A stretch of 64,000 bases of DNA from an uncultured Gammaproteobacteria bacterium (GTDB lineage Bacteria > Patescibacteriota > Patescibacteriia > UBA9570 > XYC2-FULL-38-9): positions 13,218 through 77,217 of the forward strand of contig CAZBLE010000001.1 in the NCBI GenBank assembly GCA_964492735.1. The letters run 5' to 3'. Shown here piece after piece: positions 27,713-58,048 of this stretch. A model generated the notes under the pieces. The model ran no database searches. It was not told the origin of the DNA and saw nothing but the letters and a program-made list of their open reading frames with translations. Numbering within the stretch: position 1 is the first letter of the stretch; each line of letters begins with the position of its first letter. Made by a program: the position numbers and the translations under genes.

Positions 27713-29244
27713 CGTTTTTGCTTTTTTGTGCTTGGTGCTTTTTTGCGAGTTTGCTGCGTTGGACGATCTTTTTTGCGAATCCGAGTTGGCGTATCTGTTG
27801 TTGCCGGTGCCATTGTTGAAAGTTTTCGTGAGGTTGTTTTGGTTGTCACGTTTTTTTTCATAGGCACCTCAAATTGAAACAACGACCCTTTGCCTTCCCC
27901 TTCAGATTCTGCCCAGATTTTACCACCATGTGCCTCGATAATTTTTTTAGCGATAAAGAGGCCAAGTCCAGAACCATTTGGCTCCACGCGTGCAATGCCA
28001 GAGCCACGCACAAATTTATCAAACAATGCTTTGTCCTCCCCTTTTGGAATTCCTACACCTGTGTCTTGCGACATAAATCGAATCATGCCATTGTCAGACA
28101 CTTTTGCTGAAACAGCGATGGTACCACCTGGTGAATATTTAATAGCATTATCGACAAGGTTTAAGACAACGTCTTTAATTTTATCTGGGTCGACTTCTAC
28201 AGTTGGGAGTTTGGAGCGGTTGTATGTGAGCGTGACCTGTTTCTTTTGTGCCGTTGGCAGCAGTTCAACAATGACGGAATGAATCAGCTCGTCGAATGGC
28301 ACACTCGAATAATTAATCGCGAGTCGACCAGCCTCAATGCGCGTTGCATTTAAAAAAGAATTGACCAGTCGAGTGAGTCGCTGCCCTGCTGTAAACATTT
28401 CTGAAAGGACCTCAGTCTGAGAGTTTGTGATGCGGCCGTAGTCCCCGGAAAGCATCATAGAAAGATATCCCATCATCCCGGCAAGCGGTGTACGCAGTTG
28501 ATGGGAAGCGATCGACATAAACTCTGATTTTGCAACATCGAGATCTTTGAGATGTTTGTTTGCATTTACCAGCTGATCATAAATCAACGCCTTGTCAAGA
28601 GCGATAGTTGTTACTTTCGCAATAGTATCCAGCGACTCTTTTTCATAAGCATCAAGCTTTTCATATGCACGATTCATGATGACATAAAAAACACCGATAG
28701 GCTGCCCCTCAGACTCTAGTGGGTAAATAATACCTGACTGCGGACCGCTGGATTCGGTAAGTTGCGCGAGAATTTCTAATGGCAAAGAGCCTGAAAATAA
28801 ACTAGTAAGTGAACTTGCGGATATTGGCTTATGTGTTGAAAGCACTTTTGAAAAAAGACTTTTTTTTGATCGACGTGTAATTGTTATTTCAGAGTATGCT
28901 TTTTCGATTTTTTGAAATTGTAACTGAAAAGCATCACTGTAATTAATCGCAACAGGAAAAATCTTATTTTGATTTTTTTCAAACAAAAAAATACCAACAA
29001 GGTCAAAGCTTAAATTACTACGAATTGTTTCAACAAATTTACATGCCAAATCCTCACTTGAAAGTGTGAGGTTAGAAATTTCATATAATTGACTGAGCAG
29101 TGACAGTGTCTTATTTTTAACAGCAAGCTCAAAATTACGTTGATATAAGACCTGATTAATACGACCAGAGTCAATAATCTCATCATCTTTTTCCTCCGGC
29201 GGATCTGTTGCAAACGGAATCCACTGACTAAGTTTTCTCCACAT
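27709..29244 (-). CDS. Sensor histidine kinase with an N-terminal GAF-like region
   Basis: H-box MSIASHQLRTPL, N-box LVDNAIKYSP, G-boxes DTGVGIP and GSGLGL. No response regulator in the window. 4-nt overlap with sua5. Confidence 0.8.
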   Translation of the reverse strand: MWRKLSQWIPFATDPPEEKDDEIIDSGRINQVLYQRNFELAVKNKTLSLLSQLYEISNLTLSSEDLACKFVETIRSNLSFDLVGIFLFEKNQNKIFPVAINYSDAFQLQFQKIEKAYSEITITRRSKKSLFSKVLSTHKPISASSLTSLFSGSLPLEILAQLTESSGPQSGIIYPLESEGQPIGVFYVIMNRAYEKLDAYEKESLDTIAKVTTIALDKALIYDQLVNANKHLKDLDVAKSEFMSIASHQLRTPLAGMMGYLSMMLSGDYGRITNSQTEVLSEMFTAGQRLTRLVNSFLNATRIEAGRLAINYSSVPFDELIHSVIVELLPTAQKKQVTLTYNRSKLPTVEVDPDKIKDVVLNLVDNAIKYSPGGTIAVSAKVSDNGMIRFMSQDTGVGIPKGEDKALFDKFVRGSGIARVEPNGSGLGLFIAKKIIEAHGGKIWAESEGEGKGSLFQFEVPMKKNVTTKTTSRKLSTMAPATTDTPTRIRKKDRPTQQTRKKAPSTKKQKR

Positions 29245-29266
29245 GATTTTTAAATTTTGTTTTTAT

Positions 29267-29554
29267 TTACCGAAGCATTTCAGGAATTTGATCCTCTTGT
29301 AATTTTGGCAAAAGATCTTTTACCGCATCTTTACATGCCTCCACAGAAGCTCGGCCAAATAGTCGCTCATATTGTCTGACTAGCCTATTAATCACATCAG
29401 ATTCATTTACATTATTTGTAATTTTTACATTCTTTTCGGACTCGAAGACGGATATTCCATCTACCTTAGCCGCCTCTTCCCATGCCAAAGGACCAATGAT
29501 AAGTTCTTGCTCAAGGATAATTTTTTTTGTTATTTCGAGAGTTAGGTTGGCCAT
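29267..29554 (-). CDS. Hypothetical protein
   Basis: 95 aa ORF in the operon-like minus-strand string. Confidence 0.4.
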   Translation of the reverse strand: MANLTLEITKKIILEQELIIGPLAWEEAAKVDGISVFESEKNVKITNNVNESDVINRLVRQYERLFGRASVEACKDAVKDLLPKLQEDQIPEMLR

Positions 29555-29576
29555 ACTAGTTAATCTATGCAGCAGT

Positions 29577-30383
29577 TTATTTTTTTGATTTTAATTTTAC
29601 CAATGCTCTTTCAATGTAAAGAAGGCCCGCTCCCATTAAAAAATATGATATTGAATAAATAAAATCATTTACACCACCAACATACCAACTATCATTATTC
29701 GTTTGAAATAAAAACATGAAATCAGCAAAGAATTGAGTAGTCAATGCAAATAATAATAGAAGCACTGGAAATCTCATTAATCCTTTGGCATAATTAAAAG
29801 ACAAAAGTAGAATACTAACTGTTAATGCTAGATATATTGACTGTCCTATTGGATAGGCATAATTTAAAATACTGATCAATAATTCAGATTTATCAAAAAT
29901 ATAATTTCTTAAGAAAAATCCATAGACAATACTGAAGGATACTAACGCAACTAAAATAATTAAAAAAATATTTTTAATTTCTTTTAGTTGCCTACCAATA
30001 CCCATTGCGAATCCTAAATATATAGCACCAAAAAAATAAAAAACTATACTGCCAAAGTAACCAATATCTCCTACCGATGGAAAAGCCTCTGTGTCCAATA
30101 TATAAATATAATAAGCATATACAAATTGTCCAAAAAACTGAGAAAACAGGCCTAATGATAAAAAAATAATTGATTTTCCAATGTAACTTTTATAGCCACC
30201 CCATTTAATAGCACTCAATGCTCCTAAAATTGAACCTAGTAATGATAAAATAGGATAAGCAACTGTGTAGAGATTGTTGTGAATTGTGTCAATGTAATTG
30301 TTAGAGTAAATAAATCCCCACCAAATAGAAAGTACTAAAAAAATTAATGACAAGCCAACGTATTTAATGGTATTTGCATTCAT
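29577..30383 (-). CDS. Polytopic membrane protein
   Basis: 268 aa with about 8 TM; 4-nt overlap with the upstream gene. Confidence 0.5.
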   Translation of the reverse strand: MNANTIKYVGLSLIFLVLSIWWGFIYSNNYIDTIHNNLYTVAYPILSLLGSILGALSAIKWGGYKSYIGKSIIFLSLGLFSQFFGQFVYAYYIYILDTEAFPSVGDIGYFGSIVFYFFGAIYLGFAMGIGRQLKEIKNIFLIILVALVSFSIVYGFFLRNYIFDKSELLISILNYAYPIGQSIYLALTVSILLLSFNYAKGLMRFPVLLLLFALTTQFFADFMFLFQTNNDSWYVGGVNDFIYSISYFLMGAGLLYIERALVKLKSKK

Positions 30384-31252
30384 AAGTGTAATTGATATTT
30401 TTTTAGAAAAAACTTTGGCTTTAAAGATTTTTTAAAATACCTCAAACCTTCAATGCCTAAGTCTTGTTCAAAATTAATATATTTAATATTTTTTTCTTGC
30501 AAAATATTCGCTACCGCATTTATTAAATAATGCGCAGAACCTTTATATAAGGTATCAGTTTTTTGAAAATGAAACAATGCATAATCCTGATTTAGGATTT
30601 CATAAAAACAAAATCCAACTATACTACCATCAATAAAAAATCCTAATTCTTCAGTTTTAATATCAATTTCACTTAGATGATAACGAAAATACTCAGTCAT
30701 TGCTTTTTTCTCTTTGATATTAAAATGCTCATTTTTTTTATCAGAAAAAAATTTATCGACTTTTTCTACGTCTACAAAATGAATATCACCTTTATCATAT
30801 TTTGCCAAAAAACGATTTTTCATATTTCTAATAGTAGCCATCTCACTATTTTCTAGTTGAGCAAGTTTTTGAACACTTAAAATATAATCAAAATTATCAT
30901 CATCCAATATGACCGGATATCCCAACCTACTTAATCGTTTCGCTAAGTGTTCTGGGATGTATTTTATTTTTTTATTCGGATAAAACCGGCTTAAAAGATG
31001 CATCAGATAAATAAGATTCTCATCGCTAACTTCTTTTTTTATAATGATAGATACAAAAAAATCATTTGATACATAGTCCTGCATTAGCAAAATTGCACCC
31101 TCATCAAAAAAACATACGCTTGCGTCATTTTTACACCAACTCCATAAGCTAGTAAAATTATGATCGGAGTATGGCGGGTATTCATTTGTAATACTTTCAA
31201 TTTTAGAACGATCAGTTATTTTGATGCTTCTAAAATTTAATTTGATATTCAT
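30380..31252 (-). CDS. Hypothetical protein, possibly DUF2156 (aminoacyl-phosphatidylglycerol-synthase C-domain)-like
   Basis: 290 aa soluble protein translationally coupled to the downstream polytopic membrane protein. The family assignment is from memory of domain size and architecture only. Confidence 0.3.
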   Translation of the reverse strand: MNIKLNFRSIKITDRSKIESITNEYPPYSDHNFTSLWSWCKNDASVCFFDEGAILLMQDYVSNDFFVSIIIKKEVSDENLIYLMHLLSRFYPNKKIKYIPEHLAKRLSRLGYPVILDDDNFDYILSVQKLAQLENSEMATIRNMKNRFLAKYDKGDIHFVDVEKVDKFFSDKKNEHFNIKEKKAMTEYFRYHLSEIDIKTEELGFFIDGSIVGFCFYEILNQDYALFHFQKTDTLYKGSAHYLINAVANILQEKNIKYINFEQDLGIEGLRYFKKSLKPKFFLKKYQLHL

Positions 31253-31263
31253 TTACAGTATTT

Positions 31264-31746
31264 TTATGATTGATATTGATATACCGCCAGACTTATTACT
31301 GAAATAGGTAAGTCAATGCAAACTGTTGCGTGTATATTTTTATCTACAAACGAAGAGTCAAATTTAATTTTCCGACGCTCACACATATCTTGAAGTGTCT
31401 GATCAATTAGCCTAGATACTTTTAAATAAACATCTGACCCACCTTTAGCGTGATGTTCAACAAAAAAACCCTTACCTTCTTCAATTTTATACCACCCAAT
31501 ACCCGCTGCTATATGCTCTTCAATTTTAGAAGTAGTTTCGAATGCCTTGACAACATAAAGTCTTTTTCCAAAATCCTCTTCTGGTGTTATATAATTCTCT
31601 ACTTGTTTTATATTAGAGTTGGGGGGTATGATAGAAGATAGATAAATTAAATTGTAATTTGAAACACCGGCATTAAACAGGGCATCGTCAAAAGAAGAGA
31701 GTTCAGTACTCCCAGTTCCAACTCCTCCAGTAATAATAATATCCAT
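31264..31746 (-). CDS. pdaD: Pyruvoyl-dependent arginine decarboxylase
   Basis: ...FDDALFNAGVSNYNLIYLSSIIPP... matches the PdaD self-cleavage region (cleavage between the two Ser of the SS pair); 160 aa. Confidence 0.7.
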   Translation of the reverse strand: MDIIITGGVGTGSTELSSFDDALFNAGVSNYNLIYLSSIIPPNSNIKQVENYITPEEDFGKRLYVVKAFETTSKIEEHIAAGIGWYKIEEGKGFFVEHHAKGGSDVYLKVSRLIDQTLQDMCERRKIKFDSSFVDKNIHATVCIDLPISVISLAVYQYQS

Positions 31747-31841
31747 ACTATAATACTAGTACTTATATAAAAAACCATTATACAGTATAGCACAAAATAA
31801 AAAAATCTTTATACTTTTTTTTAAACTAATCGCCCAATTTT

Positions 31842-33290
31842 CTAACGGCTATAACGATCTGATTGTATTTTTGTATAATCAACACTCATTTGCCAGCGTA
31901 AAACAATAGGCAGTATCTCTTGACCAAAATCATGAAGTTCTTTCAATTTTTCAATATGCTCACGCTTAAATGGCATATTATTTTTATGCCTGCCAATAAA
32001 AAAAATTCCTAAGGTTGAGTTTATAAAAGGAAGGGTATTTGATTGAACTAAGAATAACATTTTTGCATTCATTTTTTGCATGATTTTGGGCAGCGTCGTA
32101 TGGCTATACTCTTCTTCAATCTTCCCTACTGTTAAAATCATAGGAAGACCTTGCAATTCATCTACAAACTCTGAATCAAATAAATAATATCGATTAGTTT
32201 TCTTTTTTGGAAAAAATTCTACAAATCTACTCATGTGTTTTTGTTGTACATAAACAGAAACTACTGGCGCCTCAACAGCTTCTTGAATCATCCCAGCATA
32301 CTTAAGCAAAAAAGACTCAAGCTCATGGGTTGAATTTAACAAAAAATCTCGCTCAGAAATATATTTTGAAAAATCCAATGTTTCACGCATAAATAAATTA
32401 TTCATCAACTTTGTCACAAATAATGAAAATAAATGAAAGAAAAAAGTAAACACAAAAACTGACAATAGGAAATAGGCAATAATTTCTTTGGTCCCAACTA
32501 TATTACGTAACACAAAAAAATACACGGACGAAACTGCCAAATAGTACATTAGTGTAAACAAGCTAAATAATGTGAGTTGAAAAATTCGTTTTTGTACAAT
32601 GATGCGAATATTAAATAATCGCAAGCGCACAATAGCGTAAAGCATAAATAATCCAAGAACATAAACACTTAACGGCCCATATAATGTACTTACATATTGA
32701 TTAAAAAATACTGGTAGGATGATATTATTCCAAAAACCAAAGAGAAATGTCACAGAAAATCCAGTAGTAATATATCTAAGTTGTGTTCTATAGCGAACAC
32801 TATTGTTTGGATTGCGATATTCTTGAATTAATAAAAAAAGTGTATACCCAAAAAATGCAAACGCATATGGTAAAAATAAGTAGTATACTGGACCGAGATT
32901 TATTTCATCATAATTTGGATTACCATGAATAAAATACGATGCTGTGTAGCTAGTAAACGAAAACGGAAACAATACCCAGGCAATGACATATATGTTTAAT
33001 TCACGAATTTTTGAAATTTCAGTTTTTGTAAAAACGTAAACAAAATGTAAAAATGTTGCCGGAAAAAATATAACAGCCGTTAATGACCAGCGCGATAAAT
33101 AAATCATTAATACTGGGTCTGTGATAAAATGCGCTATTACATGAATACCACTCCATAAAAATAATTGTAGGCAAATAAATGAAAGCAAAATAACCACCTT
33201 ATTAAAAGATCTATAATAAATAACAACTAGAACAATAGCAGATAATAAAAAACAAACTCCAAATAGGCTGATAAGAAAAAATGTGTTCAT
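31842..33290 (-). CDS. Membrane protein: N-terminal ~8-TM domain plus a ~180-aa cytoplasmic C-terminal domain
   Basis: 482 aa; resembles 7TM-receptor-type sensor N-domains but has no kinase motifs. Confidence 0.45.
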   Translation of the reverse strand: MNTFFLISLFGVCFLLSAIVLVVIYYRSFNKVVILLSFICLQLFLWSGIHVIAHFITDPVLMIYLSRWSLTAVIFFPATFLHFVYVFTKTEISKIRELNIYVIAWVLFPFSFTSYTASYFIHGNPNYDEINLGPVYYLFLPYAFAFFGYTLFLLIQEYRNPNNSVRYRTQLRYITTGFSVTFLFGFWNNIILPVFFNQYVSTLYGPLSVYVLGLFMLYAIVRLRLFNIRIIVQKRIFQLTLFSLFTLMYYLAVSSVYFFVLRNIVGTKEIIAYFLLSVFVFTFFFHLFSLFVTKLMNNLFMRETLDFSKYISERDFLLNSTHELESFLLKYAGMIQEAVEAPVVSVYVQQKHMSRFVEFFPKKKTNRYYLFDSEFVDELQGLPMILTVGKIEEEYSHTTLPKIMQKMNAKMLFLVQSNTLPFINSTLGIFFIGRHKNNMPFKREHIEKLKELHDFGQEILPIVLRWQMSVDYTKIQSDRYSR

Positions 33291-33568
33291 ATTTTTGTAA
33301 TCAATGTAAAACTATGCCTATACACCTAGAGTACGAAGAAGTAGAAATACATCTACCCCTTCGACACAGATGCTCCCCGATAAGGGTATTCAATTGTACT
33401 TCTCATAAAACACGCAGCGTCACAATGCGTCAATGATCTAATTTGGCAGATTTTTGACGGCAAAAAATCGCCGAGAAAATACCCCCATAAACATTGATTC
33501 TCCTAAAAAAATAGACAAAAAACGACGGCATTTTTGTGTGGAAAACTTTTTTTCGACAACACGCCCTA

Positions 33569-34339
33569 TTACGCCAATAACTCCAAAAACACCGGCTCGC
33601 TGACAGGCACTCTCCCCAACTGGTATGCAATAACAGATCGAATCAACCCATCAATATCACGCCAAACATCATCCTCTACCCGCAGTCGCAACACATCGTC
33701 AAACGACTGATCTTGCACAAACCGCATTACACGAAGAGTGTCTACCGACATCTCACGCACCTGCTCAATAGAACGACAATTTCCACACTCAACAGCGCGT
33801 AAATCATAATGCAATTTCATCTCACCTTCTGTTGCACTCCCAGCAAATTCAGCCACCTCTCTCTTACACACATGGCAGGCTGATAATTCAAATCGATATC
33901 CGAGATACTCAAAAATCTGCACAATCGCCGCATAAACAGATAATGTATTCACCCGCTGCTGCTGCGACAACATTTCAAAAATTCCAATCACATATTCAAA
34001 TAGCAATGGGTCAACCTCTCGGTCTTCCACTAACCGGTCAATAATCTCTGCGATATACTGCCCTGCTGCCATGTGCGTCAGTGAGGTTCGCAAGCGCTCA
34101 TTACTCATAATCGTATTACTCCCCGCGACAATATCAATCGTCTTGCTTTTCGCAAAGAAAAAATCTGCCACGACAAATGGCTCTAAATGCCCGGCGAGCT
34201 TGCTAGTGATTTTTTTACTTGAAATCGCCCGCGCCGTAATCTTCCCAAAATCGCGCGACAACACGCGGACCATCGTGTCCTTTTCACGATAATCCCACCG
34301 CTTTAAAATCACTCCTTCCGTTTTATATGTCGCGGCCAT
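33569..34339 (-). CDS. recO: DNA repair protein RecO
   Basis: N-terminal OB-fold (...EGVILKRWDYREKDTMVRVLSRDFGKITARA...) and a C4 zinc motif CHVCK...CGNC. Confidence 0.75.
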   Translation of the reverse strand: MAATYKTEGVILKRWDYREKDTMVRVLSRDFGKITARAISSKKITSKLAGHLEPFVVADFFFAKSKTIDIVAGSNTIMSNERLRTSLTHMAAGQYIAEIIDRLVEDREVDPLLFEYVIGIFEMLSQQQRVNTLSVYAAIVQIFEYLGYRFELSACHVCKREVAEFAGSATEGEMKLHYDLRAVECGNCRSIEQVREMSVDTLRVMRFVQDQSFDDVLRLRVEDDVWRDIDGLIRSVIAYQLGRVPVSEPVFLELLA

Positions 34340-49781: not shown

Positions 49782-49853
49782 CTACTCCTCCCCTTCAAAC
49801 TCCTCCATCTCTTTCAGCAGTTTTTTGAATTTGCGAGATGGGTATTGTAGGTG
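49782..49853 (-). repeat. Duplicated dnaJ 3' end, direct repeat copy A (remnant of the last ~23 codons plus a stop)
   Basis: The reverse complement encodes ...YPSRKFKKLLKEMEEFEGEE* ; about 94% identical to the dnaJ terminus at 51178..51249. Confidence 0.8.
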
Positions 49854-49891: not shown

Positions 49892-51163
49892 CTATTCTTG
49901 CAATAGATCACTCACAGATGCAGGTAAAGTCTGCGACCAAATCTCTGGATCTTTTGTATAGACCATTGCATCAACACCAAGCTGACTCTTGAATACTGCA
50001 AGTTGTCGCTCCCGGCTCAGATGACGCAAGCCCGGCAATGCGGACAAGCGATCACCATGAATCGAAGCCATGGAACCCAGTCCGAGATCACGAATAATAC
50101 CGGCATATTGTGTGCGTATATTTTTTGCACGATCTGTCATGCCAAGACTCTCAATCACAGATGCAACCAGTGTGACTGTTGACAGTGAAATGATGCCAGC
50201 AAATGGATCAGCCGAATCCTCTTTGCGTTGCCCCTGCATCGCTTGTAACAACTCTGGCGGAACAACTGTTGTGATGTATCCAGTATTTTTGCGGTGTCCA
50301 TCATCTCTCTGCACAATCTCGGTCGCCGCAGAGACAACAACTTCTGCACTTCCAATCCCAAAAGCTCGAAAACGTGAATTCTGTGGCAATACACTTTCAA
50401 CGAGTGCTGACCCTGTCGCATCATAACTCATGAATGGAACAATTCCACCATTCCACATCAACGGTATGTGTGGCATTGCTTTATACAGCTCTATCAAAAT
50501 CGCTGGCGATATTGCAGAAAATGCAATGGACTCTTGAACATCTTGTGTTTCAATATATTTTTGTAACGCACGAACGTGGTCTTGATATTGCGCAGGATTA
50601 GCGCCAAGAGATTTTATTTCAATAATTAAACGATGAGCGTCTTTGTAACGATCAAACTTTTTCAATAACGATTCGAGCGTCAATTGCTGTGGTCGCGCTG
50701 CCTCAATCTGCTCTGGGTCCAATGTATCAATATACGCCTGCCGCGCAAAGAGACCTGAGCCGGACAGAGCTATTGTTGGATCATGTTGTACCCATGGTGT
50801 TCCGGATTTATCAAATCGTACGTCTAATTCTTGTGCCCATCTACCAGCAGCAAAAGCCGTATCGAACGCATGAGCGTCAAAGTGATGTCGATGATCAATT
50901 AAGCCAAATTGCTCTTGAGTTGCGCGTGACCGCTCAACGATATCAAGAGCCGCTTGTATTCTTTCAAACGAGTCGACAATCATGTCTGAAACCTCACCAG
51001 AAAAATACCCAGCTTCGACAATGGCGTCGAGGCGAGACAACGCATCAATCAATTCCGGGCGCTGTTGATATGCTTCAGCTAGTGTTAACAAGTGTGTATC
51101 CTCGGGTGAAACACCAGGAATACGGTCAATGCTCTTTTTTGCTGAAAATGATAGTTCGGTCAT
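49892..51163 (-). CDS. Glycerophosphodiester phosphodiesterase (GDPD)-family protein with an N-terminal extension
   Basis: ...IDHRHHFDAHAFDTAFAAGRWAQELDVRFDKSGTPWVQHDPTI... matches the GDPD HR...E.D(V/I)..T.DG..V..HD block. It is flanked by the dnaJ-3' direct repeats. Confidence 0.55.
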   Translation of the reverse strand: MTELSFSAKKSIDRIPGVSPEDTHLLTLAEAYQQRPELIDALSRLDAIVEAGYFSGEVSDMIVDSFERIQAALDIVERSRATQEQFGLIDHRHHFDAHAFDTAFAAGRWAQELDVRFDKSGTPWVQHDPTIALSGSGLFARQAYIDTLDPEQIEAARPQQLTLESLLKKFDRYKDAHRLIIEIKSLGANPAQYQDHVRALQKYIETQDVQESIAFSAISPAILIELYKAMPHIPLMWNGGIVPFMSYDATGSALVESVLPQNSRFRAFGIGSAEVVVSAATEIVQRDDGHRKNTGYITTVVPPELLQAMQGQRKEDSADPFAGIISLSTVTLVASVIESLGMTDRAKNIRTQYAGIIRDLGLGSMASIHGDRLSALPGLRHLSRERQLAVFKSQLGVDAMVYTKDPEIWSQTLPASVSDLLQE

Positions 51164-51177
51164 CGTATCATTATTCG

Positions 51178-52290
51178 TTATTCCTCCCCTTCAAACTCCT
51201 CCATCTCTTTGAGGAGTTTTTTGAATTTGCGAGATGGGTATTGTGGGACATGAATATTCACTTTCACAAGATGGTCACCACGACCGTGTCCGTGCAACCG
51301 TTGAATGCCTTTTCCACGCAGTCGCAAAATCGTTCCGGCGGTTGTTCCGGCTGGAATTTTTAGATCAACCAATCCGTCCAGTGTTTCAACTTCAATACGA
51401 CCACCGAGGACAGCAGTTGGATATGACACCAACTCTTCCACAACCACATCATCACCTTGGCGTTGAAAATTTTCATGGGACTTCACATGGACCACGACAT
51501 ATAAATCACCGGCTGGTCCACCAAATTGCCCAGCCTCACCTTGGCCGCTCATTCGCATGGTTTGTCCATCTTCAATACCGGCTGGAATATTCAACTCAAG
51601 GGTGGTGTTCTTTTTTTCAATCCCGTTTCCACGACACGTTTTGCACGGTGTCTTCACTGTTTTGCCGCGACCATTACAACTTGAACAGGCAACTTGCGTT
51701 CGAATTTGCCCGAAGACGCTGCGCTGAATCTGGTCAACCACGCCTGAACCTTTACAGGTGTCGCAGGCTTCAATTGGCGTTCCTGGCTCTGCGCCGTTTC
51801 CAGAACAGTGTGAACAGGTCGCCCCTTTATACAGCTCCACTTCTTTTTTGACGCCAAAGGCTGCTTCTTTGAAATCAATCGTCGTGTCCATTTGAATATC
51901 TTGGCCACGCTGCTGCGCGCTCGCACCGCCACGTCTGCGTCCACCGCCAAACAAATCACCAAAAATATCGCCGAGATCAAACTCCACGCCTTGGCCGCCG
52001 AAACCGCCTTGGCCTCCAGCTTGGCGCATAATATCTTCCCAATTCATGCCAGCGCCGCCGCCGAAACCGCCTTGGCCATTCACACCCGCTTCTCCAAATT
52101 GGTCGTAGGCGCTGCGTTTTTGCTTATCTGAAAGGACTTGATACGCCTCATTCACCTCTTTGAATTTCGCTTCATCGCCACCGTCTTTGTCAGGGTGATA
52201 TTTGTGCGCAGCTTTCCGAAACGCCTTTTTAATCTCATCTTCTGAGGCGGTTTTTGAAACTCCTAAAATATTGTAATAATCTTTTGCCAT
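51178..52290 (-). CDS. dnaJ: Molecular chaperone DnaJ
   Basis: J-domain with HPD (KYHPDKD), G/F-rich region and four CxxCxGxG zinc-finger repeats. The last 23 codons make up direct repeat copy B. Confidence 0.9.
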   Translation of the reverse strand: MAKDYYNILGVSKTASEDEIKKAFRKAAHKYHPDKDGGDEAKFKEVNEAYQVLSDKQKRSAYDQFGEAGVNGQGGFGGGAGMNWEDIMRQAGGQGGFGGQGVEFDLGDIFGDLFGGGRRRGGASAQQRGQDIQMDTTIDFKEAAFGVKKEVELYKGATCSHCSGNGAEPGTPIEACDTCKGSGVVDQIQRSVFGQIRTQVACSSCNGRGKTVKTPCKTCRGNGIEKKNTTLELNIPAGIEDGQTMRMSGQGEAGQFGGPAGDLYVVVHVKSHENFQRQGDDVVVEELVSYPTAVLGGRIEVETLDGLVDLKIPAGTTAGTILRLRGKGIQRLHGHGRGDHLVKVNIHVPQYPSRKFKKLLKEMEEFEGEE

Positions 52291-52296
52291 ATCTTC

Positions 52297-52638
52297 TTAT
52301 ACTGTATTAGTTTTTCGCAGTCGTTGCACTATATAAAGAATTCCCCAAACTGGCAATGACCAGATAAATGCGGAAAAAAGAACGAAGGCAGCTAATCCAA
52401 GGACTTGATACACTACTCCTCCAAATCCATAAACACTGGTTAGATATGGATCAACCATAAATGCCCACGCGATTGCTGGGAATGTTATAAACAGCATTGC
52501 TCGAGAAAAAAAAGTTTCACCATTAAATAGATCTTGTCCAAATACATACGACAAAAATAGCACCACGATAAACACCAAGACCCACACGAGATATGTCAGG
52601 ATATATGGATTGACTAGTTTTGTAAGGAAAGATTTCAT
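52297..52638 (-). CDS. Small 3-4-TM membrane protein, paralog 3 of a tandem triplet
   Basis: 113 aa; shares MKxFLxKLVNxYxLTYL...WSLPVWGI motifs with the two upstream genes. Confidence 0.55.
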   Translation of the reverse strand: MKSFLTKLVNPYILTYLVWVLVFIVVLFLSYVFGQDLFNGETFFSRAMLFITFPAIAWAFMVDPYLTSVYGFGGVVYQVLGLAAFVLFSAFIWSLPVWGILYIVQRLRKTNTV

Positions 52639-52647
52639 GAGTGTCTG

Positions 52648-52974
52648 TTATTTATTCTTACTTTTTATTGCATGGATAATTCCCCAAACCGGAAGTGACC
52701 AAACCAATGAACTAAAAACAGTGACGCTCAATGCTTCTTGCGTAAGGTGGACAACGGCAGCATCTTGAAACATACGCTCAATAGCAAATCCGATTACAAA
52801 AAAATATGCGATCGCGGGTATCTCAAAAACCATAAACACCCGATAAATAATATCATTGTCGTATGTTGCTCGTTGTAAGAGCACAATGATAATTGAAAAC
52901 ACAAAGAAAATCAGAAACGTGATGACGTATGGATTTTTGAGCGTCTTGATCATTTTTTGAAAAGTCGTATTCAT
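52648..52974 (-). CDS. Small membrane protein, paralog 2 of the tandem triplet
   Basis: 108 aa; conserved WSLPVWGII block. Confidence 0.55.
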   Translation of the reverse strand: MNTTFQKMIKTLKNPYVITFLIFFVFSIIIVLLQRATYDNDIIYRVFMVFEIPAIAYFFVIGFAIERMFQDAAVVHLTQEALSVTVFSSLVWSLPVWGIIHAIKSKNK

Positions 52975-52983
52975 AGGTGTCTG

Positions 52984-53325
52984 TTATTTTTTATTACTGC
53001 GTTTCCAAGGATTGATTTGCGCAACAAATAACATCCCCCAAATCGGAAGTGACCAAGTAAGTGCTGAAAAAAATGTTGCTAGCACAATACCAATAAGTTG
53101 ATACCACACTGTATTGGAAAACCCTGACATGTATATATCTAATGGCATTGCCAAAAATATTCCGGGCAGCAATATTAACACCAGCGCATTTCCAAATAAA
53201 CTATCTGGGGGCGCATTTTGCCCATCTAATAATTGAGCTAAAAGCACTGCACTCACACACACCAAAAATAATATAAGATACGTTAGCGTATATCGATTGA
53301 CGAGTTTTATAAGGAAAGGTTTCAT
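52984..53325 (-). CDS. Small membrane protein, paralog 1 of the tandem triplet
   Basis: 113 aa; conserved WSLPIWGML block. Confidence 0.55.
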   Translation of the reverse strand: MKPFLIKLVNRYTLTYLILFLVCVSAVLLAQLLDGQNAPPDSLFGNALVLILLPGIFLAMPLDIYMSGFSNTVWYQLIGIVLATFFSALTWSLPIWGMLFVAQINPWKRSNKK

Positions 53326-53356
53326 AGGTGTGTATTATGATTGTTTATTGGCTTGC

Positions 53357-53438
53357 GGGGAAGTAGCTCTCAAAACCCCGTTCGCTTCGCTCTCTGGCAG
53401 CAGAGCTGCTAATTGGTTTTGAGTAGCCACTTTCCCCT
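53357..53438. repeat. Inverted repeat element, copy L; it is itself a long imperfect hairpin
   Basis: GGGGAAGTAGCTCTCAAAACC...GGTTTTGAGTAGCCACTTTCCCC. Its core is about 91% identical to the reverse complement of 54597..54662. Confidence 0.8.
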
Positions 53439-53479
53439 CCGTCTTTACATGTTATTTTTCGCTTTTCGGTAAGTCATGG

Positions 53480-54007
53480 TTATTTTTTTGGCTCAATGCC
53501 TAACTCTAATAAAATACAATCCGCTGAACCTACTTTATTATCCTCCAATTTACATTCAACTTTTTTTATAGAATTGAGTAATTGATTATATTGCACGCCG
53601 TCGATTTTGAGATATTGTGTCTCATCTATTTTAACGGGAACAATCACTTGCCATATTCCAATCATTAAAGCAATTAACGAAATAAAAATAGCGATTAAAG
53701 AGTATTTTTTAGCATCTTGTGCATTTACTCGCGCTAATTTTAATTCATCATATTCAATTAATTTAAAATACCCCTCAAAAGAAATTGCATATCTCCAATC
53801 CAGCATTGGTTTATTCGGATATTGAGTAAGGATTTCCACAACTTCTCGCCTGTCAAATACACTGATTAAATAATTTTCCCATTCTGGAAATTTTTCTAAT
53901 GCTTCTTTTTGTGTAAAACCTGATTTTTGAGACACACAATACCGAAGAAACTGAATCTGAAAATCATTATCGTCGAGGAACTCCTTTGTTCTTTTTCGGT
54001 AGGTCAT
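53480..54007 (-). CDS. Hypothetical cassette protein with a central TM helix
   Basis: 175 aa; about 33% GC; 4-nt overlap with the upstream cassette gene. Confidence 0.5.
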   Translation of the reverse strand: MTYRKRTKEFLDDNDFQIQFLRYCVSQKSGFTQKEALEKFPEWENYLISVFDRREVVEILTQYPNKPMLDWRYAISFEGYFKLIEYDELKLARVNAQDAKKYSLIAIFISLIALMIGIWQVIVPVKIDETQYLKIDGVQYNQLLNSIKKVECKLEDNKVGSADCILLELGIEPKK

Positions 54008-54522
54008 TTTATTTCGGATATTTTTCTTGGAATCTTAATTTTTCCTTTTTGATAAAAATGAAAACTGTACTTATTTAATAATTTCATGGCTTGAAATAAA
54101 TCTTTCGTGTCTCGATTAATTTTTTCTAAAGATGTACTACCTGAGTATTTATCAGCGGTTCCAAATTCAGTATGTGTTTCAGAAAACATAGCCTTTGAAG
54201 CAAGCGTCCAAAACTTTTTATTTACAGTACTATGAACATGATCATTTCGTGTGTTTATAATTTTCTGTAAAGAAGTAATTAATTCATGATTTTTTGGATA
54301 AAACTTTGCAAGATATTTAATTATTTCTTTAGTACTGTGTCCTTGAAGATTGGTTTTTTTATAGTTACGAGCATTTAAATCTTTTATAATCAACTTTTCT
54401 ATTCTAACGTTAATATCATCAGCATGTTCTTTAATACTACTAATAAAAATATTAAAAAACACTTGATAAATAAAATGTGCTTCTAAAAATTCATTTAAAT
54501 TCTGATACTCTTCTTCGTCCAT
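54004..54522 (-). CDS. Hypothetical all-alpha cassette protein; possible HEPN-like Rx4H motif
   Basis: 172 aa. ...INTRNDHVHST... fits the Rx4-6H motif of HEPN domains. Speculative. Confidence 0.45.
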   Translation of the reverse strand: MDEEEYQNLNEFLEAHFIYQVFFNIFISSIKEHADDINVRIEKLIIKDLNARNYKKTNLQGHSTKEIIKYLAKFYPKNHELITSLQKIINTRNDHVHSTVNKKFWTLASKAMFSETHTEFGTADKYSGSTSLEKINRDTKDLFQAMKLLNKYSFHFYQKGKIKIPRKISEIK

Positions 54523-54587
54523 TTAATCGATTATAAGGATATTGACTAAAAATAAAACTAAAAAACTTATATATTTTGTGCGGTGTA

Positions 54588-54670
54588 AGGTGTGGTGTCT
54601 ACTCAAAACCAATTAGCGGCTCTGCCGCCAGCGAGCGAACGCGAGCGGGGTTTTGAGAGACACGCACACC
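54588..54670. repeat. Inverted repeat element, copy R; long hairpin, inverted relative to copy L
   Basis: GGTGTGGTGTCTACTCAAAACC...GGTTTTGAGAGACACGCACACC. Lies 18 nt downstream of the dnaK stop. Confidence 0.8.
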
Positions 54671-54688
54671 TGAAACCATTACACGATG

Positions 54689-56605
54689 TTATTTCTTTTC
54701 TTCGTCTGTCTTCTCTTCAAAATCTGCATCAACAACATCTTCTTTCTTGGCTTCACCTTCAGCTCCGCCTTCTGCTCCAGCAGCTTTTTCTTCTTCCGCT
54801 GCTTTATACAAAATCTCGCCAATCTTTTGCGCTGCTTCAGAGAGCGCTTGAGATGCTGTGTCGATTGCTTCTTTTTCTGACTTGTCGTCTGCAAGCACTT
54901 TCTTCAAGGCTTCCGCTTTTTCCTCAATCGCTTTTTTATCTTCTTCTGGAACTTTGTCGCCAGCATCTTTCACAGCTTTTTCTGTTGAATAGAGCAAGCT
55001 TTCAGCAATGTTGCGCGCTTCGATCAATTCTTTTTTCGCGCGATCTTCATCAGCATGCGCTTCAGCATCTTGTTTCATCTTTTCGATTTCCGCATCTGAC
55101 AAACCGCTGGACGCTTCAATGCGAATAGATTGTTCTTTGCCTGACGCCTTATCAACCGCTTTCACATTCAAGATACCGTTGGCATCAACATCAAAGGTGA
55201 CTTCCACTTGTGGCACGCCACGTGGAGCTGGTGGAATACCGGACAAAATAAATCGTCCGAGTGATTTATTGTCTGCCGCCATTTCACGTTCCCCTTGTGT
55301 GACATGCACTTCAACTTGTGTTTGATTGTCTGCCGCAGTTGAGAAAATTTGTGACTTACTACTTGGAATAGTTGTATTACTTTCAATCAACTTTGTTGCA
55401 ACGCCGCCCAATGTTTCAATTCCGAGGCTGAGAGGGATCACATCCAAAAGCAAAATATCTTTCACATCTTTTTGCAGAACGCCAGCTTGCACAGCAGCAC
55501 CGAGCGCGACCACTTCATCTGGATTCACTGTTGCGTTTGGTTTTTTACCGAAGAACTCTTCCACTTTTGATTGGATTAGTGGCATTCGAGTTTGTCCACC
55601 AACCAAAATAATTTCATTGATCGCTCCCTTATCAACACCTGCAATCTTCAAGGCTTCACGCACTGGTTCGAAGGTGCGAGCAACCAAGTCACTCACCAAT
55701 TCTTCGAGTTTCGCACGAGTCACTTTCATCACCAAATGTTTTGGTCCAGTACTTGGATCGTTGGCGATAAATGGTTCGTTGATTTCTGTGTCAGCTGCTG
55801 ATGACAATTCAATCTTGGCTTTTTCTGCTGCTGATTTCAAGCGTTGCAATGCAAGATTGTCTTGTTTCAAATCAATGCCTTCTTGTTTTTTGAATTCATC
55901 AACAATGTGATTGATTAAGACTTGGTCAAAATCGTCACCACCCAAATGCGTGTCACCATGCGTTGATTTCACTTCAACGGTATCTTCTGATACTTCAAGG
56001 ACAGAAACATCGAATGTGCCGCCACCCAAATCGTATACCAAGATTTTTTCATCTTTCTTTTTATCAAAACCATACGCAAGGGCCGCTGCTGTTGGTTCAT
56101 TGATAATGCGCTTTACATCAAGACCTGCAATTTTTCCGGCATCTTTTGTTGCTTGGCGTTGTGAATCATCAAAATACGCAGGAACAGTAATCACTGCTTC
56201 AGTGATTGTTTCACCGAGCTTTTCTTCTGCATCCGCTTTCAATTTCATCAAAATTTTTGCAGAAATTTCTTGTGGAGTGTATTGCTTTTCTCCCATTTTC
56301 ACCATCACGCGTTCACCGTCTTTGACGATTTCGTATGGCATCAATGACAAATCTTTTTGCACTTCTGCGTCTTCAAACCGGCGACCAATCAAACGCTTCA
56401 CACTAAAGATTGTGTTTTTCGCATTTGTCACGGCTTGGCGTTTTGCACCAACCCCGACTAAAATTTCACCAGTTTTTGTTTCCGCAACAATTGATGGAGT
56501 TGTGCGGTTGCCTTCATTGTTTTCGATCACCTTCGCCGCGCCGCCTTCAAAAATCGCGACACACGAGTTGGTGGTTCCGAGATCGATTCCGAGAATTTTA
56601 CTCAT
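54689..56605 (-). CDS. dnaK: Molecular chaperone DnaK (Hsp70)
   Basis: [34 protein letters not shown] and an EEVD-less acidic C-terminus; 638 aa. Confidence 0.95.
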
Positions 56606-56761: not shown

Positions 56762-57286
56762 TTATTTAACAACTTTGACTCGCGCCACTTGGATGACTTT
56801 CCCGTTGAGAGTAAATCCAGTGGACACTTCTTCTGCGACTGTACCGGATTTCTGCTTTCCGTCGCCGTCCACTTCTTCGACTGCTTCATGCATTGTGGCG
56901 TCAAACGGTTTTCCGACAGCTGCAATCGGCTCTGCTCCATGCGCTTTTAAAATGTTCATGAAGTTTTGCTGAATGTATTCAATGCCCTTCGCCCACGCAT
57001 TGTCGCGATCCTCTGGCGGAATGCCAGCGAGCGCATATTTGAAATGGTCGACCATCGGCAAGAGCTCTTGGAGGAATTGTTCAGTCGCAAACTTGTTAAT
57101 GTGCTGCAGGCGTTGCTGCGTGTCTTTTTGAAGGTTTTGGTAATCGGCTTGTGACCGCTTCCAGCCTTCTAAGTATTCTGCCGCGCGCTCGGCATCAGTT
57201 TTTTCTTCTGGTGTTGCCTCTTCTGTTTCTGGTGTTTCCGGCGGCGCGTGTTCTTGTTCGTCTTGTGGTGTGTCATTTTTTGTCAT
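56762..57286 (-). CDS. grpE: Nucleotide exchange factor GrpE
   Basis: Coiled-coil N-terminus and a conserved C-terminal beta-domain; sits between hrcA and dnaK. Confidence 0.8.
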   Translation of the reverse strand: MTKNDTPQDEQEHAPPETPETEEATPEEKTDAERAAEYLEGWKRSQADYQNLQKDTQQRLQHINKFATEQFLQELLPMVDHFKYALAGIPPEDRDNAWAKGIEYIQQNFMNILKAHGAEPIAAVGKPFDATMHEAVEEVDGDGKQKSGTVAEEVSTGFTLNGKVIQVARVKVVK

Positions 57287-58011
57287 AAGCGTTTTTGTTG
57301 CTGATTCATAAATTGTTCGAGTGCCTGCAGAATGTTGATGTTGCGGTTATAATCCATCCGCATTGGCCCAAGAATGCCGAAGACCGACTGTCTTCCATCT
57401 TGGTCATATTCAGCAACGATCATGGCGCAATGACGTGACACTGGATTTTTATCTCCAATAAACACCTCAATGTCTTTTTCCATTTTCGATCGCGCGGAAT
57501 CCAAGACACTTTCCATGTCATCAAACATATCAGACACTTCCAGCATCATTTCACGACCATCCACAAATTCTGGCTTGCGGAGCATATTGGCGATTCCAGT
57601 ATAATAAAATTCTTCGCCATCAATACTCATCACGACCATCTCGTCAGTGAGTGACGAAATCGCGCGTGCCATTTGTTTCGCGGTTTGCACGGCGCTGTCT
57701 GGGGCGCTGGTTGCTGCTTCAGACAGTTCGTGATGCTGCCGCTTGGTGAGTGATCGTTTGTGCAGAAAATTGGTAATATAATATTGATACCCCATTTCTG
57801 TTGGGATTCGGCCGGCGGATGTATGCGGCTGCTCAATGTAGCCACCTGTTTCCAGCTCTGCCAAATCGTTACGCAATGTCGCTGGTGAGACGCCAAAGTC
57901 ATGGTCATCAAACAGCTGTTTTGAGCTGACCGGTTTTGCGGTTGCGATATATTGCTCGACAACGGCTTGCAAAATCGATTCTAAACGCTCTGTATTGCCT
58001 AATTGGGTCAT
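57283..58011 (-). CDS. hrcA: Heat-inducible transcription repressor HrcA (short form)
   Basis: N-terminal wHTH (...PVSSKQLFDDHDFGVSPATLRNDLAELE...). 4-nt overlap with grpE. CIRCE lies immediately upstream. Confidence 0.8.
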   Translation of the reverse strand: MTQLGNTERLESILQAVVEQYIATAKPVSSKQLFDDHDFGVSPATLRNDLAELETGGYIEQPHTSAGRIPTEMGYQYYITNFLHKRSLTKRQHHELSEAATSAPDSAVQTAKQMARAISSLTDEMVVMSIDGEEFYYTGIANMLRKPEFVDGREMMLEVSDMFDDMESVLDSARSKMEKDIEVFIGDKNPVSRHCAMIVAEYDQDGRQSVFGILGPMRMDYNRNINILQALEQFMNQQQKRL

Positions 58012-58021
58012 ATATTTTGAA

Positions 58022-58048
58022 TTAGCAGTCTCTTGGTGAGAGTGCTAA
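58022..58048. promoter_or_regulatory. CIRCE operator (HrcA binding site)
   Basis: TTAGCAGTC-N9-GAGTGCTAA against the consensus TTAGCACTC-N9-GAGTGCTAA (1 mismatch), 11-37 nt upstream of the hrcA start. Confidence 0.8.

Follow-up and report, generated by a model that had tools for sequence, protein, structure and literature searches.

Small paralogous membrane proteins in the dnaK–dnaJ gap of a Patescibacteria heat-shock operon: possible strain-variable accessory factors

Why do three small genes for membrane proteins lie inside a heat-shock operon, directly upstream of dnaJ, and do they belong to the chaperone machinery? The question is raised by a stretch of 64,000 nucleotides (nt) from an uncultured bacterium of the Patescibacteriota (GenBank assembly GCA_964492735.1, contig CAZBLE010000001.1, positions 13,218 to 77,217), here called the window. 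A first-pass annotation of this DNA had described a tandem triplication of proteins of about 110 amino acids (aa) between a cassette of two genes (ORF172 and ORF175) and dnaJ. Three adjacent open reading frames (ORFs) of 113, 108 and 113 aa are present on the same strand exactly where it had placed them; we refer to these small ORFs between ORF175 and dnaJ as A, B and C, and to related loci as L001 to L014. Our preferred answer, held tentatively and with somewhat less than even confidence, is that the three proteins are ancient paralogues from a hitherto undescribed family of membrane proteins and would act as swappable, dispensable, strain-specific accessory envelope factors in an islet shuffled by recombination, and not as parts of the chaperone machine.

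The paralogy of the three proteins is clear from alignment. By BLASTP, A and C share 39% identity (E 3e-24), B and C 26% (E 1e-16) and A and B 29% (E 2.5e-9), all far past chance; the identity of 30–40% first given holds for A and C, while B shows only 26–29% to the other two. The C-terminal motif WSLP(V/I)WG is invariant in A, B and C. The N-terminal motif MKxFLxKLVNxYxLTYL was found in A and C, while the version in B is four residues longer and looser (MNTTFQKMIKTLKNPYVITFL). No fourth copy of the family was detected in the window by tblastn. A recent triplication was not borne out: synonymous sites of the paralogues are near saturation (proportion of differing synonymous sites, pS, 0.58–0.63), and the very divergent haplotype of L008 and L009 again has three copies in order, with tail types that match. 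The tails fall into an A-type (Q-x-N-x-W-K-R), a short B-type (K-K-Q-K-like) and a C-type (IVQR(L/R)(R/K)K), and by these motifs the ordered trio would be old. The 5′ ends of A and C (53259–53338 and 52572–52651) are 76% identical at the DNA level over 80 nt, including 13 nt before the ATG, with the remainder near saturation; this likeness could come from gene conversion between the copies or from a constrained initiation region.

Being short and without database annotation or family, the three frames might be taken for chance ORFs in a T-rich spacer. In seven orthologous pairs, however, the ratio of non-synonymous to synonymous change (dN/dS, Nei–Gojobori method) was 0.18–0.41, with C at 0.33–0.41 against its orthologues; the small genes are therefore real coding sequences, on which purifying selection acts in relaxed form. 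Across 20–80% identity they keep their frames, helix pattern and motifs, and the E-values between paralogues reach down to about 1e-24. By these comparisons a chance origin appears effectively refuted, with next to no probability left to it. The GC content of A, B and C is 36–37% (genome about 43%) and ordinary at third codon positions. dN/dS was 0.03–0.07 for dnaJ, dnaK and hrcA and 0.11 for grpE; the small genes thus evolve 5–10 times faster than the chaperones. Positive selection was considered as well and rejected, as a regional scan of pN/pS (pN, the proportion of differing non-synonymous sites) found no segment above 1.

The array contrasts with its flank. Its alleles share 20–35% protein identity; between haplotypes the small proteins are 27–34% identical and their synonymous sites are saturated (pS 0.58–0.73), while the flanking dnaJ is 94–98% identical. 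Comparing the window with L007, nucleotide identity was 35–57% across the last small gene and then 95–100% from position ~301 into dnaJ, the jump lying about 40 nt before the stop codon of the last copy. The first 65 codons of dnaJ had a pS of 0.054 in this comparison, versus 0.58 in the adjacent small gene. Ancient alleles thus lie beside near-identical flanks, which points to exchange of the array through recombination rather than plain inheritance.

What the gap contains differs from strain to strain. At every family locus with long enough context the genes occupy the same spot upstream of dnaJ, and partial contigs are consistent with this. Among strains with DnaJ at least 93% identical, the copy number is one (L001), two (L003), three (window, L008 and L009) or five (L007). 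The gap of L001 and L002 holds a 75-aa ORF, a long hairpin, a 106-aa protein and C as the one copy before dnaJ; that of L003 runs from dnaK through proteins of 256 and 175 aa, the hairpin, a 106-aa soluble protein, A with a TAA at codon 12, and C to dnaJ. In L008, dnaK is followed by a hairpin, membrane proteins of 144 and 254 aa, a GNAT acetyltransferase, three copies and dnaJ; L009 has a 220-aa protein and three copies before dnaJ, and L007 at least five copies. The change in copy A of L003 (5271–5306) is from TAT to TAA, leaving a remnant ORF of 90–93 aa, and marks either a pseudogene or a low-coverage assembly error. The soluble protein of 106–109 aa between hairpin and array, which is well conserved (dN/dS 0.02), was seen in L003 (4941–5261), L001 (723–1043) and L006 (217–546). 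It does not occur in the 64-kb window and had no library match; it may be akin to the PII-like insert of NIF3/YqfO proteins in its stand-alone form (COG3323).

Beyond the carriers of the family, outgroup loci with DnaJ 64–68% identical to that of the window were inspected. In the gap of L010 a 218-aa orphan was found and in that of L014 another orphan, while L012 (GCA_016182555.1, 3903–5996), a metagenome-assembled genome (MAG) of Candidatus Kerfeldbacteria, has a TIR_2 protein, peptide deformylase (def) and a 194-aa protein. The 218-aa and 194-aa proteins before dnaJ were considered as fused family members and rejected, being unrelated to the family. As the outgroups carry unrelated genes here, the dnaK–dnaJ gap is a general insertion hotspot in the clade, in which the small-protein family is the cargo of one lineage. 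The content of L012 suggests that accessory and defence-type genes have landed in this gap repeatedly.

What the proteins look like bears on what they might do. Their description as small membrane proteins is supported. Three helices are predicted, and of these only the first and last are firmly membrane-spanning across the family. In all members a short basic N-tail leads into a firm first helix; an acidic, variable middle of 40–65 residues follows, and then a last helix with W-S-L-P-x-W-G and a short basic C-tail. The middle contains a proline-centred, marginally hydrophobic helix. Calculated as a position-independent sum on the Hessa scale, the first and last helices were near or below 0–1 kcal/mol in most members, and the middle helix came to 0.5–3.4 kcal in types A, B, C and 5 and to 6–9 kcal, clearly non-spanning, in types 2 and 4. 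In every full-length member there are 2–4 Lys/Arg in the N-tail, where acidic residues are nearly absent (P0008 has one Asp); the C-terminal segment carries 3–5 Lys/Arg and is acid-free wherever the last helix could be delimited, and the part between the tails is net acidic. Two spans are what the whole family has in common, and by the positive-inside rule this charge pattern would place both tails in the cytoplasm (N-in/C-in), with the variable acidic middle outside or dipping into the outer leaflet.

The AlphaFold2 (AF2) model of C has helices at residues 11–33, 43–69 and 75–111 (predicted local distance difference test, pLDDT, 73). Three spans, which the model by itself would allow, would leave a near-neutral charge bias, and dual topology would then be possible. 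The proteins might accordingly be small oligomeric channels, transporters or holin-like pores, forming homo- or hetero-oligomers and possibly of dual topology like SMR or Fluc pairs. Their length of ~110 aa with three predicted helices, the tandem paralogues in conserved order in two haplotypes, a bias in lysine plus arginine (K+R) of just −1 to −2 if three spans are assumed and the conserved intramembrane Pro/Trp/Gly motif agree with such a function; no similarity to transporter, SMR, CrcB or holin families was found, however, the middle helix of types 2 and 4 clearly does not span, the opposite charge biases of dual-topology pairs are absent from the paralogues, strains with a single copy exist, and the neighbours include no endolysin or substrate-related gene. 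We regard a channel or pore as quite improbable.

Near the end of C, the segment TATATAGT is the same in all of six related loci, and C-type orthologues have zero synonymous changes in the last 27 nt of the gene. In A and B the Leu-Pro codons are CTTCCG, and both therefore lack the −35 element of the sigma-70-like site that lies in C (Table 1). A family member, either C-type or its type-5 equivalent, stands directly before dnaJ at every locus with a readable junction. The spacers are 9 nt between A and B and between B and C and 6 nt from the stop of C to the ATG of dnaJ, this last distance being 6–7 nt in all loci; a conserved TAACAGACAC precedes the ATG of both B and C. A Shine-Dalgarno-like purine run precedes almost no start codon among 18 window genes examined (including dnaK, dnaJ, A, B and C), and translation initiation in this genome seems, on this pattern, to be Shine-Dalgarno-independent.

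From these features the 3′ end of C probably doubles as promoter and leader of dnaJ, and its conservation would come from the dnaJ expression signals together with a role as recombination anchor. A further step would be to see the last ORF as a cis-acting leader whose translation controls dnaJ, either by coupling or by monitoring of the nascent chain, as in SecM-secA or MifM-yidC2, with the other copies as duplicates. Besides the short stop-to-ATG distance, the lack of Shine-Dalgarno sequences and the absence of synonymous change in the last 27 nt, it could draw on the alleles P0010 and P0012, whose last 14 codons are identical although they are otherwise 30–38% identical. The conserved stretch is, however, explained more simply by a dnaJ promoter or leader and a recombination boundary, the tails are different in L008 and L009, purifying selection acts on whole proteins and not on their ends alone, and DnaJ is not a membrane-insertion factor. 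Control of dnaJ through translation of the last ORF is therefore among the least probable of the explanations considered here.

Taken together, an accessory envelope role in an exchangeable islet is the reading we prefer. Whole copies or arrays would be exchanged by homologous recombination, anchored on one side by the conserved 3′ end of the last copy and dnaJ and on the other by dnaK or the hairpin; the array would be expressed with dnaJ, and the proteins would protect against or mediate an antagonistic interaction (a membrane-acting toxin, a phage or host-cell contact). A tie to an antagonistic or recognition interaction is probable from the pattern of variation. Several points weigh against this interpretation. 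Several of the related loci are short metagenome contigs of low coverage, so that misassembly could account for the nonsense codon and for some of the copy counts. No codon region has a dN/dS above 1, and diversifying selection would be read from nothing but the depth and turnover of the alleles. A partner, whether toxin, phage or receptor, was not identified. The family member beside dnaJ in every relative seen, along with the ordered trio in two haplotypes, could mean a conserved, operon-linked function. Finally, the AF2 model with its three long helices does not by itself support a two-span topology.

Whether the array is a part of the heat-shock response depends on its setting. The genes on the minus strand run in the order hrcA, grpE, dnaK, ORF172, ORF175, A, B, C, dnaJ, and the features are collected in Table 1.

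Table 1. Features of the hrcA-to-dnaJ region, in coordinates of the window
Feature	Position	Strand	Remarks
dnaJ	51178..52290	(-)	Pfam DnaJ, DnaJ_CXXCXGXG and DnaJ_C on window product P0014 and orthologues; dN/dS 0.055–0.069
Paralogue C	52297..52638	(-)	113 aa; tail IVQRLRKTNTV; dnaJ-proximal copy
Sigma-70-like site, candidate dnaJ promoter	52328..52356	(-)	TTGCCA-17-TATAGT; within WSLPVWGILYIV codons of C, ~40 nt before dnaJ ATG; consensus scan 10/12
Paralogue B	52648..52974	(-)	108 aa; short tail ending KSKNK; not in L001 or L003; B-like types in L007, L008, L009
Paralogue A	52984..53325	(-)	113 aa; tail ending AQINPWKRSNKK; orthologues P0007, P0008, P0009
Array-proximal long hairpin	53350..53445	(-)	Inverted copy of the dnaK-proximal hairpin; RNA fold −42.9 kcal/mol, z −5.1
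ORF175	53480..54007	(-)	Soluble N-part and one C-proximal hydrophobic helix; GC 31%; 83% aa identity to L003 version; no family match
ORF172	54004..54522	(-)	GC 25%; R-x4-H string RNDHVH; in no related locus
dnaK-proximal long hairpin	54580..54675	(-)	Inner stem terminator-like; RNA fold −46.3 kcal/mol, z −5.6
dnaK	54689..56605	(-)	ORF; 98% aa identity to L008 gene with Pfam HSP70
grpE	56762..57286	(-)	ORF; 97% identity to L003 gene with Pfam GrpE
hrcA	57283..58011	(-)	ORF; 99.6% identity to L003 gene with Pfam HrcA
CIRCE operator	58022..58048	.	TTAGCAGTC-N9-GAGTGCTAA, one mismatch; 10 nt upstream of hrcA

Searching with the consensus TTAGCACTC-N9-GAGTGCTAA of the controlling inverted repeat of chaperone expression (CIRCE), one match was found in the window versus 0 in 100 shuffles. 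It lies at the operon promoter, with a promoter-like TTGACA-18-CATACT (58081–58052) immediately upstream. As both precede hrcA, this is a class-I heat-shock operon, and the intercalation of the three genes in it, as first annotated, is supported by the shared strand and the short spacers down to dnaJ. Co-transcription with dnaK, which had been presumed as well, is uncertain, since dnaK and the array are separated by a pair of very stable hairpins and by an insert rich in AT, and a sigma-70-like site lies inside the last copy. The hairpins, each of ~85 nt, are mutual inverted copies (91–95% complementary) that bracket ORF172 and ORF175, one following the dnaK stop and the other just before A; their outer stems differ in sequence and both pair. 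The array-side hairpin is kept at 94–95% in L001 and L003, which have only that copy, and L008 has only the dnaK-side copy, in the same place. The hairpin was considered as a dispersed repeat and rejected, since within the window it was found at the dnaK–dnaJ gap only. Because the two hairpins and the AT-rich ORF172 and ORF175 intervene, transcription through to A, B and C is not assured. A place on a heat-inducible transcript would be favoured by strand and tight spacing and opposed by the hairpins, the insert and the internal promoter-like site.

On this ground A, B and C might be accessories for heat shock or membrane stress in the HrcA/CIRCE regulon, stabilising the membrane or recruiting DnaJ/DnaK through their basic cytoplasmic tails. 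The operon signals upstream of hrcA, the 6–9 nt spacers on one strand, the presence of at least one copy directly before dnaJ at every readable junction and the conserved termini, cytoplasmic by charge, all agree with such a role. It is less easily reconciled with a copy number of 1 to 5 plus a pseudogene, amino-acid change at 5–10 times the chaperone rate, allele swaps beside a near-identical dnaJ, the absence of the family from the next relatives, which hold unrelated genes in the gap, and the two strong hairpins and foreign AT-rich cassette that separate the array from dnaK. Owing to this rapid turnover a stress-protectant role is the less likely choice, and we consider it unlikely, though not negligibly so.

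A further feature was seen at the dnaJ end of the operon. A 63-nt direct duplication of the dnaJ 3′ end (96.8%; 49786–49848 and 51182–51244) brackets ORF423 (49892–51163, weak GDPD match), and the same duplication of the dnaJ 3′ end occurs in L001 (3840–3909). This looks like the insertion of one gene, with the end of dnaJ restored in the process. Elsewhere in the window, the region 28000–34000 has a GC content of 0.30–0.36 versus ~0.43 in the remainder and may be another foreign island.

The two genes between the hairpins had been described in the first-pass annotation as a toxin-like cassette with a HEPN motif, next to which the array was reminiscent of immunity genes. If so, ORF172 and ORF175 would be a toxin module that A, B and C neutralise. 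The two gene sets adjoin, ORF172 is compositionally foreign with its R-x4-H string, and ORF175 accompanies A- and C-type copies both in the window and in L003. The string was recognised by eye only, however: Pfam at E ≤ 1 gave no HEPN match for ORF172, nor did NCBIfam, PADLOC, PHROGs or the PDB; other profile matches were likewise absent, and its single-sequence AF2 model, all-helical with a pLDDT of 53.6, was too low for a fold search. For ORF175 no family match was found in Pfam, NCBIfam, PADLOC or PHROGs, and no toxin or secretion domain turned up in the array neighbours examined. The cassette also varies independently of the array, with 172 and 175 aa in the window, 256 and 175 aa in L003, 144 and 254 aa plus GNAT in L008 and a 75-aa ORF in L001. 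A different 256-aa protein thus replaces ORF172 in L003 beside the same A and C types, L001 retains C with neither cassette gene, and in L008 and L009 both the array types and the neighbours are different. HEPN RNases act in the cytoplasm, and what normally counters them is a soluble antitoxin, not a membrane protein. The proposed tie to a HEPN cassette is accordingly unsupported, and immunity to this neighbour is highly improbable. As for the broader idea of an immunity-like array, an accessory or antagonism-related role would agree with the varying copy number, the pseudogene and the swapped alleles, but no toxin partner was found.

How widely is the family distributed? In total about 20 sequences were found among billions searched. 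A profile of the three proteins retrieved 10 proteins from 5.8 billion clusters, and a broader profile of 15 members retrieved 8; when 1.84 billion representatives were scanned exhaustively with HMMER, 7 proteins were found. The hits of the HMMER scan and of the two word-indexed profile searches all belong to one small lineage. Among GTDB species representatives there was one true locus. No family member was found in JGI metagenome contigs, in IMG/VR, or, by tblastn, in phage and plasmid records. Profile searches found no match at the curated cut-off in Pfam, NCBIfam, PHROGs or PADLOC for A, B, C and 15 family members (for PHROGs none at E ≤ 0.001). The best sub-threshold match was the domain of unknown function (DUF) DUF5326 with type-2 copies (E 1.9e-5, 25.2 bits versus a cut-off of 27), covering one helix in 3 of 15 members; A matched DUF7942 (E 0.007, 16.7 bits versus 26.7) and NF046119, the SCO4225 family membrane protein (E 0.003, 17.4 bits versus 33). 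Each of these signals occurred in just 1–3 of the 15 members and points to a shared hydrophobic make-up, not to homology. The AF2 model of C had no Foldseek match in the PDB or BFVD (BFVD best E 2.3), a PDB sequence profile search came back empty, and a literature search on genes between dnaK and dnaJ or on variable membrane-protein arrays in Patescibacteria returned nothing relevant.

The relatives of the window DnaJ form a tight cluster of at least 93% identity, which are the family carriers; the next relative is at 68%, and the nearest named DnaJ, at 64%, belongs to Candidatus Kerfeldbacteria, followed by other Patescibacteria. By sequence distribution, A, B and C form a previously undescribed orphan family confined to one genus-level lineage of the Patescibacteria, or candidate phyla radiation. 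As orphan small membrane proteins are common in candidate-phyla-radiation genomes, their novelty as such is limited; the noteworthy part is a hypervariable islet, bounded by recombination, inside a heat-shock operon.

These bacteria have tiny genomes and many uncharacterised membrane proteins thought to mediate dependence on host cells. To our knowledge, almost none of these proteins has a function or a population-genetic signature. The locus offers a small, clean test case, with a conserved housekeeping operon holding fast-turning membrane-protein alleles in an internal gap. If the array is an immunity or recognition determinant, it would show envelope diversification without dedicated mobile elements; otherwise the value lies in annotation, as these are real genes of a new genus-restricted family, to be read neither as part of the chaperone machine nor as partners of a HEPN toxin. 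A bolder proposal, which we think distinctly unlikely, is that the dnaK–dnaJ gap is a dedicated cassette-exchange site where ancient shuffled alleles with an outward variable loop would set the outcome of strain-specific antagonism or host attachment, wired to the stress response. Such outcomes might be immunity to a toxin that acts on membranes, the exclusion of phages or, for an epibiont, recognition of its host; if this is true, ultra-small bacteria would have variable envelope determinants of a new class.

Among known systems, the proteins of DUF7942, NF046119 and DUF5326 are likewise small membrane proteins of unknown function, with all matches below the curated cut-offs. Class I phage holins differ in that no PHROGs match at E ≤ 0.001 and no relative in phage or IMG/VR records was found, and the neighbours of the array are chaperone genes. 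SMR proteins such as EmrE/EbrAB and Fluc/CrcB are also ~110-aa tandem membrane paralogues with a weak K+R bias, if three spans are assumed; the array differs in having three and not four hydrophobic segments (the middle one marginal), no conserved membrane acidic residue in the alignment, basic tails at both ends of every paralogue and no match to Multi_Drug_Res/EmrE or any other Pfam family. Immunity proteins of the colicin E1 and bacteriocin type are small inner-membrane proteins of 3–4 helices, often duplicated and strain-specific. The array shares with them the length of ~110 aa, several hydrophobic helices and short charged tails, but no similarity in sequence, profile or fold, and no bacteriocin gene or transporter lies nearby. 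From the immunity arrays of polymorphic toxins and bacteriocins it differs in that, among the neighbours examined, no cognate toxin gene could be recognised by a toxin or delivery domain.

The closest likeness is to strain-variable islets at fixed hotspots, such as defence or immunity islands and orphan immunity arrays. Here, in contrast to these, the hotspot is within the hrcA-grpE-dnaK-dnaJ operon; the array comes with no toxin, secretion-system, integrase or known defence gene, and none of its members matches a known immunity or defence family. The fixed position between conserved flanks, the gene content differing in close relatives, the tandem small paralogues with variable copy number and pseudogenes, the deep allelic divergence beside near-identical flanks and the TIR-domain gene in the same gap of a related MAG are all shared. 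We rate the locus as one of a known kind, a strain-variable accessory islet carrying an array of small membrane proteins.

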